Assembly: GCA_024644005.1 (NCBI GenBank) | Contig: JAHELU010000001.1 | Span: 1 to 53,842, forward strand | Source: Acidimicrobiales bacterium | GTDB taxonomy: Bacteria; Actinomycetota; Acidimicrobiia; Acidimicrobiales; SZUA-35 | Reading direction: 5' to 3' | DNA: 53,842 nt | Shown here: positions 17,670 to 49,534 of the stretch, one piece after another | Position numbering within the stretch: position 1 is the stretch's first letter | How the letters are laid out: each line of letters opens with the position of its first letter | Notes under the pieces: model-generated | The model's database searches: none | Seen by the model: the letters and a program-made list of their open reading frames with translations, nothing else | Told to the model about the DNA's origin: nothing | Made by a program: the position numbers and the translations under genes

Positions 17670-19085
17670 GTGAAGCGGTACCACCTCCGAACCTACGGCT
17701 GCCAGATGAACGAGCACGACTCCGAGCGCATCGCCGGACTGCTCGAGGCCGACGGGTACGAAGCAACGCCGTCGCCGGAGGCGGCAGACGTCGTGGTGCT
17801 CAACACCTGCTGCATCAGGGAGAACGCGGACAACAAGCTCTACGGAGCGCTCGGCAACCTCAAGGCGCTGAAGCAGGACAAGCCCGACCTGCAGATCGTG
17901 GTGGCGGGCTGCCTGGCCCAGAAGGACAGGGACCTCATCCGGGAGCGAGCCGGCCACGTCGACGTGGTCTTCGGCACCCACAACGTGCATCGGGCCGCCG
18001 AGCTGCTGTCGGAGGCCCGTCGAGGTGGCCCGATCACCGAGATCTGGACCGAGGCCATGGTGGGGGAGGCCGAGGCCTTCCCATCGGCCCTGCCGGCCAA
18101 GCGGGAGACGGACCACGCAGCCTGGCTCACTATCCAGATCGGCTGCGACAACGCCTGCGCCTTCTGCATCGTCCCGTCGGTCAGGGGCGCCGAGATCAGC
18201 CGCCCCTTCGTCGAGATCGTGGCCGACGCCCGGGACCTCGCGGCCCGGGGCGTCACCGAGGTGACCCTGCTCGGACAGAACGTGAACTCCTACGGTCGTG
18301 ACCTCGCCCTGGCCGCCCGCCGCCAGGGTGAGCCCGTGCGGGTCCGGCCCCGGTTCGGCCAGTTGCTCCGGGCGGTCGGGGCGATCGAGGGCTTGCGCCG
18401 GGTCCGGTTCACCAGCCCCCATCCCAAGGACATGACCGCCGACGTGTTCGAGGCCATGGCGGCGACCGAGACCGTGGTCGATCACCTCCACTTCCCGCTG
18501 CAGTCCGGTTCCGATCGGGTCCTGGCCGCCATGCACCGTGGCTACACCGGTGCCCGGTACCTGGAGAAGCTGGCCGCGGCCAGAGCGACGATCGACGACC
18601 TGGCCGTCACCACAGACATCATCGTCGGCTTCCCTGGCGAGACCGAGGACGACTTCCAGGCCACCCTCGAGCTGGCCGCCGAGGCCGGGTTCGACAGCGC
18701 CTACACGTTCGTCTTCTCCCCCCGGCCGGGAACCGAGGCGGCGGAGCTGGTGGACCAGTTCTGTGATCCGGACGAGGTCAAGGACCGGTACGCCCGCCTC
18801 AGAACGGTCATCGAGCGGTCGGCCCTCGCCCGGTACCGGGCCAGGATCGGGCTGGTGGAGGAGGTGGTCGTCGAGGGACCGTCGAAGAAGGACCCGTCGC
18901 TGCTGACCGGGCGAACCGCCCACAACAAGCTGGTCCACTTCGCCTCGGCACCGTTGCGGCCCGGGACCTATGCCACCACCCGCATCACCGACGCCGCTCA
19001 CCAGTACCTTCGGGGAGAGCTGATCGAGGTGACGGCCAGGCCGGCCCACCGCACCAGGATCCCGGTGGCCGCCGCCGGGCGCTAG
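17670..19085 (+). CDS. miaB: tRNA-2-methylthio-N6-dimethylallyladenosine synthase
   Basis: Begins MKRYHLRTYGCQMNEHDSE, with the radical-SAM motif GCDNACAFC. Confidence 0.93.
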   Translation: MKRYHLRTYGCQMNEHDSERIAGLLEADGYEATPSPEAADVVVLNTCCIRENADNKLYGALGNLKALKQDKPDLQIVVAGCLAQKDRDLIRERAGHVDVVFGTHNVHRAAELLSEARRGGPITEIWTEAMVGEAEAFPSALPAKRETDHAAWLTIQIGCDNACAFCIVPSVRGAEISRPFVEIVADARDLAARGVTEVTLLGQNVNSYGRDLALAARRQGEPVRVRPRFGQLLRAVGAIEGLRRVRFTSPHPKDMTADVFEAMAATETVVDHLHFPLQSGSDRVLAAMHRGYTGARYLEKLAAARATIDDLAVTTDIIVGFPGETEDDFQATLELAAEAGFDSAYTFVFSPRPGTEAAELVDQFCDPDEVKDRYARLRTVIERSALARYRARIGLVEEVVVEGPSKKDPSLLTGRTAHNKLVHFASAPLRPGTYATTRITDAAHQYLRGELIEVTARPAHRTRIPVAAAGR

Positions 19086-19246
19086 CGCCCCGAGTCACAA
19101 GTCGTGCTCATGTTTCGACGGCTCGTTTCGCCCCTCGCAGCGTCCTCGTCGTTGCCTCACGCTCACGAGTGAAGCTGCCTCCTGCGTCCTTGCGAGGGAC
19201 GAAGTCGCTCGCCGAAATACTGAGCGAACTCATGACTCGGGGCGCT
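19084..19246 (-). repeat. Nested imperfect-palindrome element, copy A (candidate structured RNA / REP-like element), inverted relative to copy B
   Basis: 14-bp closing helix AGCGCCCCGAGTCA (19084-19097) / TGACTCGGGGCGCT (19233-19246). Inner helix CCCTCGCA / TGCGAGGG. The reverse complement carries CAAGGACGCAGGA...CAGCTT...GTGAGCG...CGAGGACGC, collinear with 49283-49451. Confidence 0.7.
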
Positions 19247-20570
19247 GGGGCCTCGCCTCGGCCCGGTCGAGGCGCTCGCCGGCGGCGAGCACCGCGCTCA
19301 CCACCGTCGCCGGATCGGCGAGCGGGTTGGCCGCCACCGATCGCAGCCATGTCCGACCACCGATGTCGACCGTGGACACGACGGCCCCGGCCAGCTCGGC
19401 CCGTATCGCCGCCGACCCGTGGTAGCGGTGGCGCCAGGCGACGACACCGCTGTGGTTCGGGCCGAATCGGGCCAACCGGGGCTCGGCGTCGATCAGCTCG
19501 ACCAACCGGTCGGCCACGGCCATCCCGTGGTCGACGAGTCCTTCCACGCCATCGAGGCCGAGGGCGAGCAGCGTGGCCGCCAGCGGGGCGGCCGTGGCGC
19601 CGTGACTCCCGAGCAGCCCGAGGTTCGGGACCTGGAGGTAGGCCTCGTCGACGCTGACCGCCCGGTGGGCCCGTTCGGCATCCGCGAAGAGGACGACCGC
19701 CGATTCCTTCGGCTGGAACAGCCACTTGTGGGCCGACACGGCCACCGAGTCGGCTCGACCGATGCCGTCGAGCCGGTGCCGGTGGCGCCGGGAGAACCGG
19801 AGCGGTCCGGCCCATGCGGCGTCGACGTGGAGCCATGCCGGCCGGTGGGCGCCCGCGCCCGGGTCGAGCTCGTCGATGGCCCCGGTTCCCGTGGTGCCGG
19901 CGGTGGCGACCAGGATCGTCGTCCGGGGATCCAGCGCCGTCCCCCCGCCGCGGCCCGACGACCCGGGTGCTGAGCGGGCGAACCGGTCCGCGACGTCGGC
20001 GGCCGACAGCGCACCGTCGACGGTCGGTTCGATGGCGGCGTAGCGTAGCCCCAGGATGGCCGCAGCCTTGCGGATCGAGAGATGGCTGGACGTCGAGGCT
20101 GCCACCGTCGAGGCACCGGTCAGCTCGCGCGCCGCCCACAGGGCGGTCAGGTTGGCCACCGTCGAGCCCGGGACCAGGTGTCCGCCGGACATGGCGAAGA
20201 CCGGGCTGAGCCAGTCGACGACGCGCCGCTCCAGCTCCCGGGCCGCCGGAGCGGTGTCGGGATGGAGCAGGTTCTGATTGGTCGACGCCGCGAGCAGCGT
20301 CGCCACCCAGGTCGGCCACGGCGTCGGTGGGTCCATGTGGGCGAGGAAGCCCGGGTCACCCAGATCGCGGGCAGCGCCCCGTACATAGGGCGTCACGAGG
20401 GCCAGGGCCCGTTCCGCCCCGACCCCGGGGCCAGCGAGGCGGCCCGGCAGCTCGAGTGTCGTCGCCTCGTCGGACAGCGCGGCGGCCACCGCCGCGGCCA
20501 CGGCCTCGGGCTCGGCCCGGAACAGCGCCCGCAGATCCTCCGCCAGTACGTGGGGTGGTTGGTCGTTCAT
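19230..20570 (-). CDS. PLP-dependent (group II) amino-acid decarboxylase family protein
   Basis: 446 aa. The PLP-lysine context is SAHKWLFQPKESAVVLF. The substrate is not inferable. Confidence 0.8.
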   Translation of the reverse strand: MNDQPPHVLAEDLRALFRAEPEAVAAAVAAALSDEATTLELPGRLAGPGVGAERALALVTPYVRGAARDLGDPGFLAHMDPPTPWPTWVATLLAASTNQNLLHPDTAPAARELERRVVDWLSPVFAMSGGHLVPGSTVANLTALWAARELTGASTVAASTSSHLSIRKAAAILGLRYAAIEPTVDGALSAADVADRFARSAPGSSGRGGGTALDPRTTILVATAGTTGTGAIDELDPGAGAHRPAWLHVDAAWAGPLRFSRRHRHRLDGIGRADSVAVSAHKWLFQPKESAVVLFADAERAHRAVSVDEAYLQVPNLGLLGSHGATAAPLAATLLALGLDGVEGLVDHGMAVADRLVELIDAEPRLARFGPNHSGVVAWRHRYHGSAAIRAELAGAVVSTVDIGGRTWLRSVAANPLADPATVVSAVLAAGERLDRAEARPQRPES

Positions 20571-20577
20571 CGCGTCG

Positions 20578-20583
20578 AGACTA
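20578..20583 (-). promoter_or_regulatory. -10 box TAGTCT, 7 nt upstream of ATG 20570 (leaderless-type)
   Basis: The reverse strand reads caTAGTCTcgacgcgATG. Confidence 0.5.
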
Positions 20584-20597
20584 TGGCCGGCCGGCCA

Positions 20598-21575
20598 TCA
20601 GCCGGTCTCGGAGGCTCCCCCGGGTGCGAACCGTCGCGCTCCGGCCACCAAGCCGGCCACGAGTCGGTCGGTGGCGGGATCGGTCGGCGATCCCCGGCGC
20701 TGGGCCACCACCAGCCGCCGGGTGAGCAGCGGCCGGCGGCGGGCCCGGAGCAGCGGGGTCGGCTCGGCCTCGGCCTGGAGGACCGGGAGCACGGTCCAGC
20801 CGAGGCCGAAGTGGACCAGCTGCCGCAGCACCTCGGGCTGGTGGGACTCGGCCTCCACCCGGAAGTCGTTGCCGAGCCGCCGCAGCGCCGCGGCGATGTG
20901 CCGCCTCGTGTGCGACGGGGGAGGGAACGTGACCCACGGTCCCCAGGTCGCCGGGCTGTCGATTCGCTGTCCGGTACCGGGAGGGCCGACCGGGGCGTAG
21001 ATGGCCAGTTCCTCGGTCAGCAGCTCTCGGGTGGTCAACCCATCTCGATCCGCATCCCCCGCCCCGGTCGGTCCGAGCGACGCCTGGCCGCCGACCGACG
21101 GCGGCTCGACGATCACCGCTGCATCCAGGCGGCCGTCGAGGAGCTGATCGACCAGCGTTGCCGACGGGGCCACGGTGAGCCGGAGGTCCACATCGGGCCG
21201 CTCGGTCCGGAACTCGACGAGGGTGTCGGGGAAGTAGTGCACCGCCGCGATGTCGATGAGGCCGAGCCGGACCTCACCACGCTCGCCCTCCGCAGCGGCG
21301 TTGGCCCAGACCGTGAGGTCGCGGGTGGCGGCCAGTATCCGCTCGCAGCGGGCGAGGGCCTCCCGGCCCTGGGCCGTGAGTGCACGGTTCCGGCCCCGGC
21401 GCTCGAACAACGTCAGCCCGAGCTTTCGCTCCAGCTCCGACAGGCCCTGACTCAGCGCCGATGGACTGATCCGCAGCTCCCGGGCGGCGTCGGCCATGGT
21501 GGGCCAGCGGTCGACGGCCAACAGGTACTGGAGCTGGTGGGTGGTGAGGTTCAGCAGGGGAGGGGGCTGGGACAT
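20598..21575 (-). CDS. LysR-family transcriptional regulator
   Basis: N-terminal HTH region LQYLLAVDRWPTMADAARELRISPSALSQGLSELERKLGLTLFER. Confidence 0.9.
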   Translation of the reverse strand: MSQPPPLLNLTTHQLQYLLAVDRWPTMADAARELRISPSALSQGLSELERKLGLTLFERRGRNRALTAQGREALARCERILAATRDLTVWANAAAEGERGEVRLGLIDIAAVHYFPDTLVEFRTERPDVDLRLTVAPSATLVDQLLDGRLDAAVIVEPPSVGGQASLGPTGAGDADRDGLTTRELLTEELAIYAPVGPPGTGQRIDSPATWGPWVTFPPPSHTRRHIAAALRRLGNDFRVEAESHQPEVLRQLVHFGLGWTVLPVLQAEAEPTPLLRARRRPLLTRRLVVAQRRGSPTDPATDRLVAGLVAGARRFAPGGASETG

Positions 21576-21647
21576 GGTTCAGGACACGGTTGGGGACATG
21601 GTTCGGGACACGGTTCGGGACATGGTTCGGGACATGGTTCGGGACAT
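21576..21647. repeat. 12-bp microsatellite, six units (GGTTCGGGACAT and variants), abutting the LysR start codon
   Basis: Units start at 21576, 21588, 21600, 21612, 21624 and 21636, and the last three are identical. The LysR strand reads (ATG/GTG)TCCCGAACC, in frame with the LysR ATG. Confidence 0.9.
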
Positions 21648-21686
21648 GGTCCAGGTTCGGTTACGAAAGGTTCAGTAATCCTTCAC

Positions 21687-21692
21687 TATACT
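21687..21692 (+). promoter_or_regulatory. Candidate -10 box TATACT for ino1
   Basis: It lies in an AT-rich stretch (21660-21726), 35 nt upstream of ATG 21727. Confidence 0.4.
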
Positions 21693-21726
21693 GCTTTTCG
21701 ATTCAGATTTCCTTAGATTGAAGCAC

Positions 21727-35533: not shown

Positions 35534-36076
35534 ATGGTTGCCCTCCTTCATCCCCGGCCCTCGACCCGGACTCGTCACGGCCGCGGAGCGGCCCCGGTTC
35601 ACGGCCGCGGAGCGGCCCCGGTTCACGGCCGCGGAGCGGCCCCGGTTCACGGCCGCGGAGCGGCCCCGGTTCACGGCGGCGGAGCGGCCCCGGCGCTGCG
35701 GCTTGTGGTCGACAACACCGCAGCGCCGGCCGAGGGTCCCGTCCGGTGGGGCTCCCTCGACCGTTCGGCGCTGGCGGGGCTGGTTGCGGTCGCTGCGCTG
35801 GTGCTGGGCGGCTTACTGACCGTCCGGTTGCTGCAGGGCTCGCCAACCGCCGCGGGGCTCGGCGCCGATCGAGCCGCTGCCACGGCGCCGGTCGTCGCGG
35901 GGCCGGGGGAGCGGATCGTCGTGGCCAGGGCCGGCGATTCGCTGTGGTCGATCGCCCGCACCATCTCCCCCGATGACGATCCCCGGCCGATCGTCGCAGC
36001 CCTCATCGAGGCCAACGGTGGAGACTCGGTGCAGATCGGTCAGCAAATCGTTGTGCCCCGGCAGCTTCTAGATTGA
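35534..36076 (+). CDS. LysM-domain membrane protein, ChiZ (Rv2719c)-like SOS-induced cell-wall/division protein
   Basis: Arg/Gly-rich repeat N-terminus, one TM (LAGLVAVAALVLGGLLTV) and a C-terminal LysM (AGDSLWSIARTI...IGQQIVVP). It is divergent from lexA and upstream of nrdR, as in mycobacteria. The ATG at 35534 follows GAGGAG, and the GTG at 35468 is also in frame. Confidence 0.7.
   Translation: MVALLHPRPSTRTRHGRGAAPVHGRGAAPVHGRGAAPVHGRGAAPVHGGGAAPALRLVVDNTAAPAEGPVRWGSLDRSALAGLVAVAALVLGGLLTVRLLQGSPTAAGLGADRAAATAPVVAGPGERIVVARAGDSLWSIARTISPDDDPRPIVAALIEANGGDSVQIGQQIVVPRQLLD
35576..35695 (+). repeat. 24-bp in-frame tandem repeat, 4 perfect units plus 1 degenerate (CACGGCCGCGGAGCGGCCCCGGTT)
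   Basis: Units start at 35576, 35600, 35624, 35648 and 35672. They encode (HGRGAAPV)n in the ChiZ-like N-terminus. Confidence 0.9.
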
Positions 36077-36573: not shown

Positions 36574-36584
36574 CCGCCGGTCCC

Positions 36585-36705
36585 GAGCTCTCGATCCGAG
36601 CCTCCTAGCCGAGCCCGCTGACTGAGCCTGCGATCCGGAGCTCTCGATCCGAGCCGGCTAGCCGAGCCTGCTAGCCGAGCCTGCGATCCGGAGCTCTCGA
36701 TCCGC
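36585..36705. repeat. Direct repeats in the nrdR / reductase convergent gap (53-bp period)
   Basis: GAGCCTGCGATCCGGAGCTCTCGATCC occurs at 36624-36650 and 36677-36703. GAGCTCTCGATCCGAGCC occurs at 36585 and 36639. CTAGCCGAGCC occurs three times. Confidence 0.8.
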
Positions 36706-41713: not shown

Positions 41714-43342
41714 CTACGGCAACGGCAGGAAGTTGTTGCCCTGGTAGGTCTGCAGGGGGTTCAGCCTGGCGAACATCCGGGCGGTGCCGGTCTGACCGTA
41801 GGAGCAGTTCCTGGCGCGCTTCATGCAGCCGTTGATCCACAGGTCCATGGCGTCGTCGTTCCAGCCGCCGAACCAGTCGGCATGCAGGGTTGCGCCGGGG
41901 CCGGTGTTGAAGCCGTTCGACCGGTCGGACGACAGGTACCACCCGTTGGTGTTGCCAGCCGGGAAGTACACGAGGATGGAGATCTGGGGGAGTCGGACCG
42001 GATGGCTCCCCGGGCACGACTGGTTGTCGTTGACGTAGGTCATGTGGGAGGAGTGGTCAGGTGCGTCCAGGTTCTTGCCGTCCCAGCAGAACGGGAACTG
42101 GATGTAGAAGTTGACCGGATCGCTGCCGCAGTTGTTGGGAATCCGGTTCGACTTGTTGTACGACGTGCCGCTCGGCCCGCAGGACCAACCGAGCTTGTAG
42201 TCGGCGGTGAAGGACTCCTTGGTCGGGTTGCCGGCGATCATCTTCAGGCCTTGGGGCATGCGCTGGACCTCGCCGGGATGCTTGGTCTTGTAGTAGAGGA
42301 TGATCTGGTCCGGCACGACCGCATTGCCCTTGCCGTCGAGCAGCGCCGGGGTCCAGTAGCCCGAGCGGTTCAGCTCGAACCCGTTGCAGCTGCCGCCACC
42401 GGAGTTGACCAGGCTGTTGGTCGTGGTGTGGGCGTTGACCTTCGTGTTGCCGAAGAACATGTGGAGGTGCGACTTGCCGGGCTGGCCGGGGAAGACGATC
42501 GGATCGTCGTAGGAGAAGTGGGAGTAGTTGCAGGCCATCCGGAAGTTGCCGTCGGGATGGGCGCCGTTGTCCGGCACCGGGGCCGGGATGGTGAGCGCAT
42601 CCATGCTGATCTGGCTCGCCGGGACGTTCTCGTACCGGTTGAACAGCGGGTCCCGGTTGCGGATCGCCTCGAACTGGGCTTCGGTGCCCTTGCTGGCCGG
42701 GGCCGCCGGAGGGCTGGTGGTGGGGGCGGCGGTGGTCGGGGCTTTGGTTGTCGGGGCGGCGGTGGTGGGGGCGGCGGCTGCGCCGGTTGTGTTGCTCTTC
42801 GCCGCCGTGCCGGCTGTGGTCTCTGCCGCCGTGCCGGCTGTGCTCTCTGCCGCCGTGCCGGCTGTGGTCTGGGCGGCCGTGCCGGCTGTGGTCTCTGCCG
42901 CCGTGCCGGCTGTGGTCTGGGCGGCCGTGCCGGCGGTGCTCTCTGCCGCCGTGCCGGCTGTGCTCTCTCCCGCTGCTCCGGCAGGGGCCGGACCCTGGCC
43001 GGGCAGCCGGGCGGAGCCGTCGACGAGGCCGGTGATCCCGTTCGCCGAGATCGAGGCCGGCGAATCGGCCGGACCATCGAGGCCGCCGCCGGCGGAGCCG
43101 ATCGACTGCCCGACGTCGGCCCGCACGACGAGCGGGTCCCCGCTGTTGCCGGCACCGGGCAGGTCCAGCGAGGGCCCGACGTCGCCCGCAGATGACGATT
43201 CCGTGGCGAGGGGGGCGGAGGCCGTCTCGATCCGTTGGCCGTCCTCGAGCTCCTGCCCCGACGAGTCGACGACGACGAGGGTCAAGGTCAATCCTGCGGT
43301 GAATGCCACACACAGTGCGGCCAGTCCCGAGCTCGGTGACAT
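41714..43342 (-). CDS. Secreted/anchored DUF1996-domain protein with Thr/Ala-rich repeat linker
   Basis: Signal-anchor MSPSSGLAALCVAFTAGLTLTLVVV. Repeat (A/E/Q)(S/T)TAGTAA x7. C-terminal domain with YDDPIVFPGQPGKSHLHMFFGN. GGGGAAGG is the RBS before the ATG at 43342. Confidence 0.75.
   Translation of the reverse strand: MSPSSGLAALCVAFTAGLTLTLVVVDSSGQELEDGQRIETASAPLATESSSAGDVGPSLDLPGAGNSGDPLVVRADVGQSIGSAGGGLDGPADSPASISANGITGLVDGSARLPGQGPAPAGAAGESTAGTAAESTAGTAAQTTAGTAAETTAGTAAQTTAGTAAESTAGTAAETTAGTAAKSNTTGAAAAPTTAAPTTKAPTTAAPTTSPPAAPASKGTEAQFEAIRNRDPLFNRYENVPASQISMDALTIPAPVPDNGAHPDGNFRMACNYSHFSYDDPIVFPGQPGKSHLHMFFGNTKVNAHTTTNSLVNSGGGSCNGFELNRSGYWTPALLDGKGNAVVPDQIILYYKTKHPGEVQRMPQGLKMIAGNPTKESFTADYKLGWSCGPSGTSYNKSNRIPNNCGSDPVNFYIQFPFCWDGKNLDAPDHSSHMTYVNDNQSCPGSHPVRLPQISILVYFPAGNTNGWYLSSDRSNGFNTGPGATLHADWFGGWNDDAMDLWINGCMKRARNCSYGQTGTARMFARLNPLQTYQGNNFLPLP
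42801..42968 (-). repeat. 24-bp in-frame tandem repeat x7 inside the DUF1996 gene
   Basis: Units of GCCGCCGTGCCGGCTGTGGTCTCT and variants start at 42801 and recur every 24 bp. Confidence 0.9.
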
Positions 43343-49282: not shown

Positions 49283-49451
49283 CTAGCAGGGTGCTGAAGA
49301 TCGCCGTTGAGGTTCTCGGAGGCCAGGCGCCGCCCAGTCAAGGACGCAGGATTCGCCACAGCTTGTGAGCGCTATGGCGAATTCGAGGACGCAGAGTGGG
49401 CGGATGGATGGCCTCCGAGAATCCGACATGTGATTTTCAGCACCCTGCTAG
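49283..49451 (+). repeat. Nested imperfect-palindrome element, copy B (candidate structured RNA / REP-like element)
   Basis: Helices: 49283-49298/49436-49451 (16 bp), 49313-49324/49410-49421 (12 bp), 49330-49336/49397-49403 (7 bp) and 49351-49358/49375-49382 (8 bp). Two AGGACGCAG copies lie at 49341 and 49386. Confidence 0.7.
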
Positions 49452-49534
49452 TTGCGGCCGACGGTCGGCTTGCGGCCGTGGTTGGCCTTCTTGCGGCGGG
49501 CCAGGAGCCGCTTCTTGCGTCTGCGCTTCGACAT
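49448..49534 (-). CDS. Ribosomal micro-protein, bL37-like (28 aa)
   Basis: The reverse strand encodes MSKRRRKKRLLARRKKANHGRKPTVGRN. The basic ANHG(K/R)(R/K)P core matches my recollection of actinobacterial bL37. It is below the ORF-track size cutoff. Confidence 0.6.
   Translation of the reverse strand: MSKRRRKKRLLARRKKANHGRKPTVGRN

Follow-up and report, generated by a model that had tools for sequence, protein, structure and literature searches.

Background

[quoted passage not shown] Here we describe a palindromic element, copy A, at the junction of a miaB-type gene and a decarboxylase gene in a 53,842-nt stretch of Acidimicrobiales DNA (contig JAHELU010000001.1; the whole stretch is called the window). 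Copy A is very probably a non-autonomous transposable element, a non-coding MITE of about 161 nt whose family is spread through Acidimicrobiia, Thermoleophilia and other Actinomycetota. A second member, copy B, lies in the same window.

The closest described systems include the Correia/NEMIS elements of Neisseria. Like the copy A family, these are about 100-160 bp long, non-coding and multi-copy, with TIRs, terminal TA and target duplication. Both have a distinct central motif, which in the 155-bp Correia element is an IHF site, and both give long-hairpin transcripts, those of Neisseria being RNase III substrates (PMC2229807). As for the copy A family, no cognate transposase is known for Correia (PMC2229807). 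Unlike Correia, the copy A family is GC-rich rather than AT-rich, folds as one hairpin over the whole element and shows no sequence similarity to it; its most conserved part is the centre rather than the TIR, and it is common to classes of a phylum. To our knowledge, neither a strand-specific G:U/purine asymmetry nor the recreation of CTAG at both ends has been described for Correia.

RUP (repeat unit of pneumococcus), other MITEs derived from IS630/Tc1-mariner elements and plant Stowaway elements resemble the copy A family in being short, TIR-bounded and non-autonomous and in inserting at TA with TA duplication; the same target and duplication are documented for IS630/Tc1-mariner elements themselves (PMC2170065). 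For RUP, a link to IS630-Spn1 has been made (PMC2229807), and its TIRs match a known insertion sequence (IS), whereas no partner IS or transposase was found for the copy A family in the window and about 0.96 Mb of family loci. The ERIC (RU-1) and YPAL (RU-2, 168 bp) sequences of enterobacteria are likewise imperfect intergenic palindromes of similar size. They are transcribed together with adjacent genes, and it has been proposed that they affect mRNA in a way that depends on their orientation (PMC2229807). However, YPAL lacks terminal TA and has 3-26-bp duplications, the ERIC TIR is 7 bp long, and neither is related to the copy A family by sequence or by the hosts in which it occurs. Extragenic palindromes for which the single-strand fold matters in mobilisation are also represented by REP/BIME elements, which have RAYT transposases, and by IS200/IS605-derived palindromes. 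REPs, however, are 20-40 nt long and lack target duplication, and in the IS200/IS605 derivatives the ends are asymmetric and duplication is likewise absent; with about 162 nt, symmetric ends and a duplicated TA, the copy A family falls outside both classes.

No earlier description of the family was found in the searchable papers on MITEs or Actinomycetota, and full-text matches to the core sequence were all unrelated. Rfam gave no match at the gathering threshold in the window and 15 other loci; a permissive search returned none at E<=10 around copy A and only noise around copy B. The family is a new one of a known kind (MITE), and its novelty is the class-spanning structured core together with the strand-specific hairpin.

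Copy A is a long hairpin that belongs to a widespread family

The junction is flanked by a MiaB-type radical-SAM open reading frame (ORF; 17670-19085, + strand, stop TAG at 19083-19085) and a PLP (pyridoxal phosphate)-dependent decarboxylase ORF (19230-20570, - strand, stop at 19230-19232). The 171 nt across this gap form one long imperfect hairpin. It is closed by a perfect 14-bp helix, in which AGCGCCCCGAGTCA (19084-19097) matches the reverse complement of TGACTCGGGGCGCT (19233-19246) at every position. An inner helix (CCCTCGCA, 19132-19139; TGCGAGGG, 19191-19198) and two core motifs, GCGTCCTCG (19140-19148) and TCCTGCGTCCTTG (19180-19192) on the + strand, lie within. An earlier note on this DNA had reported the single hairpin, both helices and the motif coordinates, and all of these are present in the sequence as it described them. 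The predicted folding energy was -89.1 kcal/mol for the + strand (z -6.75) and -99.5 kcal/mol for the - strand (z -8.6), and 0 of 200 shuffles folded as well. A lone 14-bp inverted repeat is expected by chance about 0.2 times per window (rough estimate), so the significance of copy A comes from its full fold and family membership rather than from that repeat.

One genome per species was scanned with the pattern AAGGACGCAGGA-N(20-48)-CGAGGACGC, which was found at no fewer than 120 loci (L001-L120), compared with an estimated expectation of fewer than 10 chance matches. The family figures below rest on the matches listed in L001-L120, which comprise 126 instances with the window included. The hosts among these listed matches were nearly all metagenome-assembled genomes (MAGs) of Actinomycetota, namely Acidimicrobiia, Solirubrobacterales and other Thermoleophilia, Actinomycetes, Gaiellaceae and Conexibacter; Patulibacter defluvii was also represented. 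The layout common among them was an outer helix, the 12-mer AAGGACGCAGGA, a variable inner hairpin, the 9-mer CGAGGACGC and the returning outer helix. Elements measured 159-163 nt from terminal G to terminal C (mode 162) and contained no conserved ORF, only read-through from neighbouring genes.

The shared structure was supported by covariation. In an 84-sequence alignment of the core, helices P1 and P2 were 75% paired, compared with 50.5% in shuffles; their covariation score was 0.553, versus 0.163 for shuffles and at most 0.142 for slid controls, with two-sided changes in 17/17 pairs. Specifically, P1 (helix 1) showed two-sided changes in 10/10 pairs, with 80.5% of cells paired. Additionally, a terminal 17-bp helix was present and covarying in 80 aligned elements. 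A covariance model of the core scored copy A at 70.2 bits (copy A being in the seed of the model), and its matches in the window were copies A and B only, both of which are in the seed alignment.

Copy B (49283-49451) is an inverted repeat whose 43-nt arms show 81% complementarity (z -13.3). The collinear motifs CAAGGACGCAGGA ... GTGAGCG ... CGAGGACGC allow it to be aligned with copy A in reverse complement. The outer arms of the two copies are unrelated in sequence and matched in length (55 and 57 nt from hairpin end to core). The proposal that A and B are inverted copies of one real structured element was borne out. Moreover, the number of exact matches with the same architecture, set against the chance estimate, shows that the shared motifs are not a compositional coincidence.

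Several variants were observed. A short form of about 105-110 nt keeps the core, ends in CTGA(S)G...C(S)TCAG and lacks flanking TA; it occurs mainly in Solirubrobacterales (L008, L010, L022, L072, L085, L094, L095, L115 and others). Clustered or tandem copies were seen in L079 (1190-1405), L063 (3687-3902), L054 (5042-5191) and L008 (three in 8 kb). In L079, the two units directly adjoin each other in head-to-tail order at a period of about 165 nt. No TA separates them, an arrangement suggestive of a tandem duplication and not of two separate insertions. Two matches among those listed lie outside Actinomycetota: L046, labelled a Gammaproteobacteria MAG, has the full architecture with CTAGTG ends and may represent mis-binning or horizontal transfer, whereas in L075, a Bryobacteraceae MAG, the pattern occurs without a hairpin, probably by chance. 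Chance also appears to account for an orphan 12-mer in L010. A scan of viral contigs gave two matches, both without the hairpin architecture and treated as chance, and a BLAST search of plasmids gave no match to the element.

The elements insert at TA and are polymorphic between relatives

CTAG was enriched exactly 57-59 nt to the left (43/117) and 58-60 nt to the right (40/117) of the core, over a background of 0.44 CTAG per kb. The element ends read C-TA-[GTG...CAC]-TA-G, with subfamily variants. In the 80-element alignment, the inner G and C were 91-94% conserved, and the outer C on the left and the outer G on the right were each present in 56/80 elements (70%); columns outside the ends were random. 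The 33 elements with TA on both sides all had the inner G (33/33) and the inner C (33/33), and 10/10 differences between their left and right flanking 4-mers fell at outer positions. Accordingly, what is duplicated is the 2-bp TA; the element proper begins with G and finishes with C, and CTAG is its preferred target. The same differences speak against an IS5-type duplication of all 4 bp of CTAG.

A filled and an empty site could be compared directly. In L003, the element lies between convergent genes encoding 341 and 194 aa, both of which stop in the junction TAGs, and the filled site reads ...TCCGAC-TA-[GTGGGGTGGCTCG...CGAGCCACCCCAC]-TA-GGCGCC... (the element starts with GTGGGG and ends with CCCCAC). 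The empty site, ...TCCGAT-TA-GGCGCC..., was found in L124, L127 (93% protein identity) and L128 (89%), in all of which the convergent genes overlap by 4 nt. In L129 (78% identity), an internally deleted element of another subfamily occupies the same TA, and its arms match L051 and not L003 (compared positions: L129 2221-2349; L003 4043-4211; L124 2187-2190). The shared TA of L003 and L129 indicates independent hits on a rare usable target and points to an insertion hot spot or to repeated gain and loss.

Unrelated flanks surround near-identical elements in separate MAGs (L055, L056 and L108) as well as inside a single MAG (L064 and L073). Several genomes carry more than one copy: two in the 54-kb window, three in the 8-kb L008, and L064 and L073 from one MAG. 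In summary, the elements insert at TA with duplication, have inverted termini and are polymorphic for presence and absence.

Since the first base of the element is G and the last is C, CTAG is recreated at both ends, giving a TAG stop on each strand. The junction TAG was the stop of a coding-like ORF at 14/47 left ends and 17/52 right ends (about 30% of intact ends). In genomes of about 70% GC, many usable TA or CTAG sites are stop codons, which would explain why copies lie at gene ends and rarely between divergent genes.

The family shows properties by which MITEs are recognised: small non-coding units with terminal inverted repeats, target duplication, polymorphism at orthologous sites and several dispersed copies. 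The strict TA target with its 2-bp duplication is that of the IS630/Tc1-mariner group. A transposase supplied in trans and making 2-bp staggered cuts at TA would be the likely agent; the prime candidate is probably an IS630/Tc1-mariner-type enzyme, with the IS5/IS427 group as the alternative source of the mobiliser. Tenzen and Ohtsubo reportedly observed in 1991 that IS630 prefers TA within CTAG.

Copy A supplies the ends of two convergent genes

The features of copy A, together with the position of copy B, are as follows.

19085-19245, - strand: copy A, element proper, 161 nt from terminal G to terminal C (from the fold and the family-consensus boundaries TA/G...C/TA)
19083-19084, no strand: TA target-site duplication on the miaB side (from the sequence, the family-wide TA flanks and the empty/filled comparison)
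19246-19247, no strand: putative second copy of the TA duplication, degenerate, TG on the + strand and CA on the - strand (from the family consensus)
19085-19097, no strand: terminal inverted repeat, miaB-side arm GCGCCCCGAGTCA, pairing with 19233-19245
19233-19245, no strand: terminal inverted repeat, decarboxylase-side arm TGACTCGGGGCGC, whose - strand encodes the R-P-E-S codons of the decarboxylase tail
19230-19247, - strand: C-terminal extension of the decarboxylase, Q-R-P-E-S-stop, translated by hand, from the degenerate duplication and element sequence
19180-19191, - strand: core 5' motif AAGGACGCAGGA (TCCTGCGTCCTT on the + strand), from the sequence and the family scan
19140-19148, - strand: core 3' motif CGAGGACGC (GCGTCCTCG on the + strand), from the sequence and the family scan
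19149-19179, - strand: inner hairpin P2 between both core motifs, variable in sequence and covarying in the family (helix 3, two-sided changes in 7/7 pairs)
19192-19201, - strand: helix P1, 5' strand (covariation)
19129-19138, - strand: helix P1, 3' strand, closing the core by pairing with 19192-19201 (covariation)
49286-49448, + strand (sense): copy B, same family, 163 nt, with TA flanks at 49284-49285 and 49449-49450, both within CTAG

The sense strand of copy A, i.e., the strand carrying AAGGACGCAGGA, is the - strand of the window. Its terminal inverted repeat is 13 bp long and perfect, and its termini are GCG/CGC instead of the consensus GTG/CAC, both sides having changed with pairing kept. 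The miaB stop TAG consists of the TA duplication and the terminal base of the element, G19085.

The closest matches of the decarboxylase share 63-67% identity with it, and the named ones are from Acidimicrobiales MAGs. In the syntenic relatives L121, L122 and L123, the convergent decarboxylase/miaB pair is kept, with an unrelated spacer of 36-73 nt and no element. The absence of the element at these junctions marks copy A as an insertion in the lineage of the window, and it is therefore no conserved 3'-UTR (untranslated region) element or insulator of the miaB/decarboxylase pair. The earlier note had suggested such a role and had named element-free junctions as evidence to the contrary. The note had also described the closing helix as built from the ends of both genes. 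The relationship is the reverse: the element termini and the duplicated TA supply the gene ends, namely the stop codon of miaB and, for the decarboxylase, the final five codons together with the stop.

When the element and one TA are removed from copy A, the - strand reads ...AGG CCC TAG CGCCCGG, and the decarboxylase would end in R-P-stop, sharing CTAG with the miaB stop. The same arrangement exists in the empty L124 site, and L122 also ends in ...AAC TAG CGCC. The ancestral site may therefore be pictured as one CTAG in which miaB and the convergent decarboxylase gene ended in overlapping TAG stops, and into which the element would have inserted; the predicted empty site is ...AGGCCC-TA-GCGCCCGG, with both stops overlapping in one CTAG. 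The miaB TAG would have been retained, and the junction TAG of the decarboxylase would have become CAG through a putative A-to-G change at 19247. After such a change, translation of the decarboxylase would run five codons into the element (QRPES-stop).

A conserved core and a strand-specific fold are unusual for a MITE

Several observations weigh against the classification of copy A as a MITE. Neither a larger element with matching TIRs nor an IS630-like SPxLNPIE motif was found in the window and about 0.96 Mb of family loci; three weak TIR matches, with 3 mismatches each, were considered as a larger partner element and judged to be chance. The history of copy A itself is inferred from the family, because copy A looks old (degenerate target duplication and variant termini), and the relatives compared for its exact empty site share at most 67% protein identity. 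Additionally, the centre of the elements is far more conserved than the termini, which is atypical for a MITE, although the invariance of the core is partly imposed by the exact search pattern. Among second copies in the same loci, found without requiring the exact core, about half had exact cores and about half had cores with 1-3 mismatches. Copy A and L087 are near-identical over the central ~80 nt, and their arms are unrelated and internally complementary.

The hairpin is also strand-specific, which double-stranded cut-and-paste does not predict. In 110/120 elements the better fold was that of the AAGGACGC (sense) strand, with a mean advantage of 16.9 kcal/mol (p 8e-20). Mismatches in the arms were of the G:U type (G:T) in 622 cases versus 187 of the A:C type, and 675 were purine-purine versus 306 pyrimidine-pyrimidine. 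The sense strand is 56% purine, and its unpaired regions contain G, C, A and T at 0.374, 0.297, 0.188 and 0.140, respectively. The G:U excess was the same in all gene-orientation classes, and singleton (private) substitutions in six young subfamilies were balanced between the strands (C>T 17 and G>A 19; T>C 15 and A>G 17). Mutational bias was therefore rejected as the cause. The asymmetry is no by-product of mutation but belongs to the lineages that propagate, and single copies, once inserted, do not seem to preserve it.

By inspection, two AGGACGC direct repeats lie opposite one another in the hairpin, and an alignment of the two as alternating Watson-Crick and G•A pairs is possible. P2 has a conserved GAA/GA loop, with a base of Watson-Crick GA/TC in some subfamilies and of tandem GA/GA in others (also by inspection). 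The core may form a non-canonical, G•A-rich helix. In L064, a possible K-turn was seen by eye around GGCGAG/GGCCG motifs.

The whole-element hairpin and the conserved purine-rich core are probably selected in propagating lineages, the likely reason being that spread would need one strand to fold in single-stranded form, or would need the core to be bound by a factor from the host or by a transposase factor. Transcription of a copy would also leave neighbouring mRNAs with a very stable 3'-terminal hairpin. We tentatively put forward, while considering it somewhat doubtful, that the AGGACGC-repeat core, the tandem-GA P2 loop and the strand-specific hairpin form a functional single-stranded module that is needed for propagation or gives an orientation-dependent RNA function at each landing locus. 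If true, the family would be a phylum-wide 'structured' MITE in which the selected unit is the fold and not the transposase-binding termini, and it could point to an undescribed hairpin-dependent mobilisation in Actinomycetota.

Gene context and transcription signals

Gene frames around the elements were called with the GC3>GC1>GC2 rule, which, compared with gene calls from a tool, was correct in 47 cases and wrong in 0, with 5 windows uncalled. With the element (E) drawn in its sense direction, the 67 fully called contexts were distributed as <-E<- 37, ->E-> 13, ->E<- 12 and <-E-> 5. The element therefore lay downstream of at least one gene in 62/67 and between divergent genes in 5/67, a placement that fits a target found mostly in stop codons. 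The purine-rich, better-folding strand was antisense to co-directional neighbours in 37 cases versus 13 (p ~9e-4), and genes read into the antisense end more often (68 versus 39; p 0.0065). The bias may arise because the C-rich transcript, being less structured, is better tolerated, or because a non-template strand rich in G is avoided. Element orientation compared with local GC skew, a proxy for the replication strand, gave p 0.06.

No terminator-like site and no promoter or terminator consensus was found at the elements. The 10 nt downstream contained on average 1.6-1.8 T, and five or more T were present in 0/120 on the sense side and 3/120 on the antisense side. Without a U-tract or a terminator-like site, the elements do not have the form of intrinsic terminators; once transcribed, the hairpin may still contribute secondarily to termination, to the stability of RNA or to its processing.

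Alternative explanations

The strand-specific fold and the biased context could also reflect an element that is mainly a functional structured RNA on a mobile scaffold. It might be a signal for the end, processing or stability of transcripts that depends on orientation, for example a protective hairpin at 3' ends, an RNase III substrate or a C-rich Rho entry site (in the pyrimidine-rich orientation), or else a small RNA, and its benefit to the host would explain the conservation of core and hairpin. We consider this rather unlikely. The excess of G:U and purine-purine mismatches, the purine-rich unpaired regions of the sense strand, the covariation of P1 and P2 well above shuffled and slid controls, the orientation bias towards flanking genes and the almost constant position downstream of a gene all speak for such an RNA, as does the processing of Correia/NEMIS transcripts by RNase III (PMC2229807). 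However, inverted repeats covary trivially, and the better-folding strand is usually not the one present in read-through mRNA. No individual locus depends on the element, since it is absent at orthologous junctions and polymorphic between close relatives. Substitutions in young subfamilies (C>T 17 versus G>A 19, small numbers) show no preference for preserving the hairpin, which argues against purifying selection on inserted copies, and neither a U-tract nor a promoter or terminator consensus (in the listed elements) nor an Rfam match (in the window and 15 loci) was found.

Movement through a single-stranded intermediate, either a DNA hairpin of one strand or an RNA copy, with the core as the recognition site of the enzyme, would account for a fold asymmetry that exists in all gene-orientation classes and is inherited by lineages rather than made by decay. 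It would also suit arms that diverge fast yet stay complementary within each copy, and a centre more conserved than the termini. Single-strand transposons of the IS200/IS605 HUH type have asymmetric ends, a one-sided target and no duplication. In contrast, the copy A family has symmetric ends and a symmetric target preference (outer C and outer G equally frequent) and a true 2-bp duplication, which are hallmarks of DDE transposases, and we regard this route as improbable. A terminator or insulator that evolved in place at this one locus, its likeness to copy B being coincidental, has next to nothing left in its favour beyond a very stable hairpin between convergent genes. At least 120 architecture-matched copies exist elsewhere, orthologous junctions lack the element, and the ends are defined and transposon-like with no U-tract; the family, the L121-L123 junctions and the filled/empty comparison already refute this explanation.

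Other features of the window

A 28-aa ORF, MSKRRRKKRLLARRKKANHGRKPTVGRN (49448-49534, - strand), resembles actinobacterial bL37 (NF047428, E 0.007, under the family cut-off). Its TAG stop is made up of the terminal C of copy B and the duplicated TA.

The window also contains tandem repeats: about eleven copies of a 24-nt unit (GCCGCCGTGCCGGCTGTGGTCTCT-like) at 42745-43008; about nine copies of the 12-nt unit GGGACATGGTTC at 21557-21667, near the 3' end of the ORF at 20082-21716; and five near-perfect 24-nt repeats of TCACGGCCGCGGAGCGGCCCCGGT at 35575-35694. Approximately 1 kb beyond the last of these, a block rich in CTAGCCGAGCC units (36578-36696) contains CTAG, the preferred target of the element.

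Significance

For genome annotation, the hairpins of about 160 nt that lie where genes end in MAGs of Acidimicrobiia and Thermoleophilia represent mobile repeats and should not be labelled as terminators, small RNAs or 3'-UTR motifs. These elements rewrite stop codons and C-termini, and here five codons of the decarboxylase are derived from the element. Because the G...C termini regenerate CTAG and TAG on both strands, insertion into overlapping convergent stops is nearly harmless. Moreover, the insertion polymorphisms are usable as strain markers. The class-spanning core, the arms that change but stay complementary and the strand-specific fold are unusual for a MITE, and their study might uncover a factor of the host or a route of mobilisation in poorly studied Actinomycetota.

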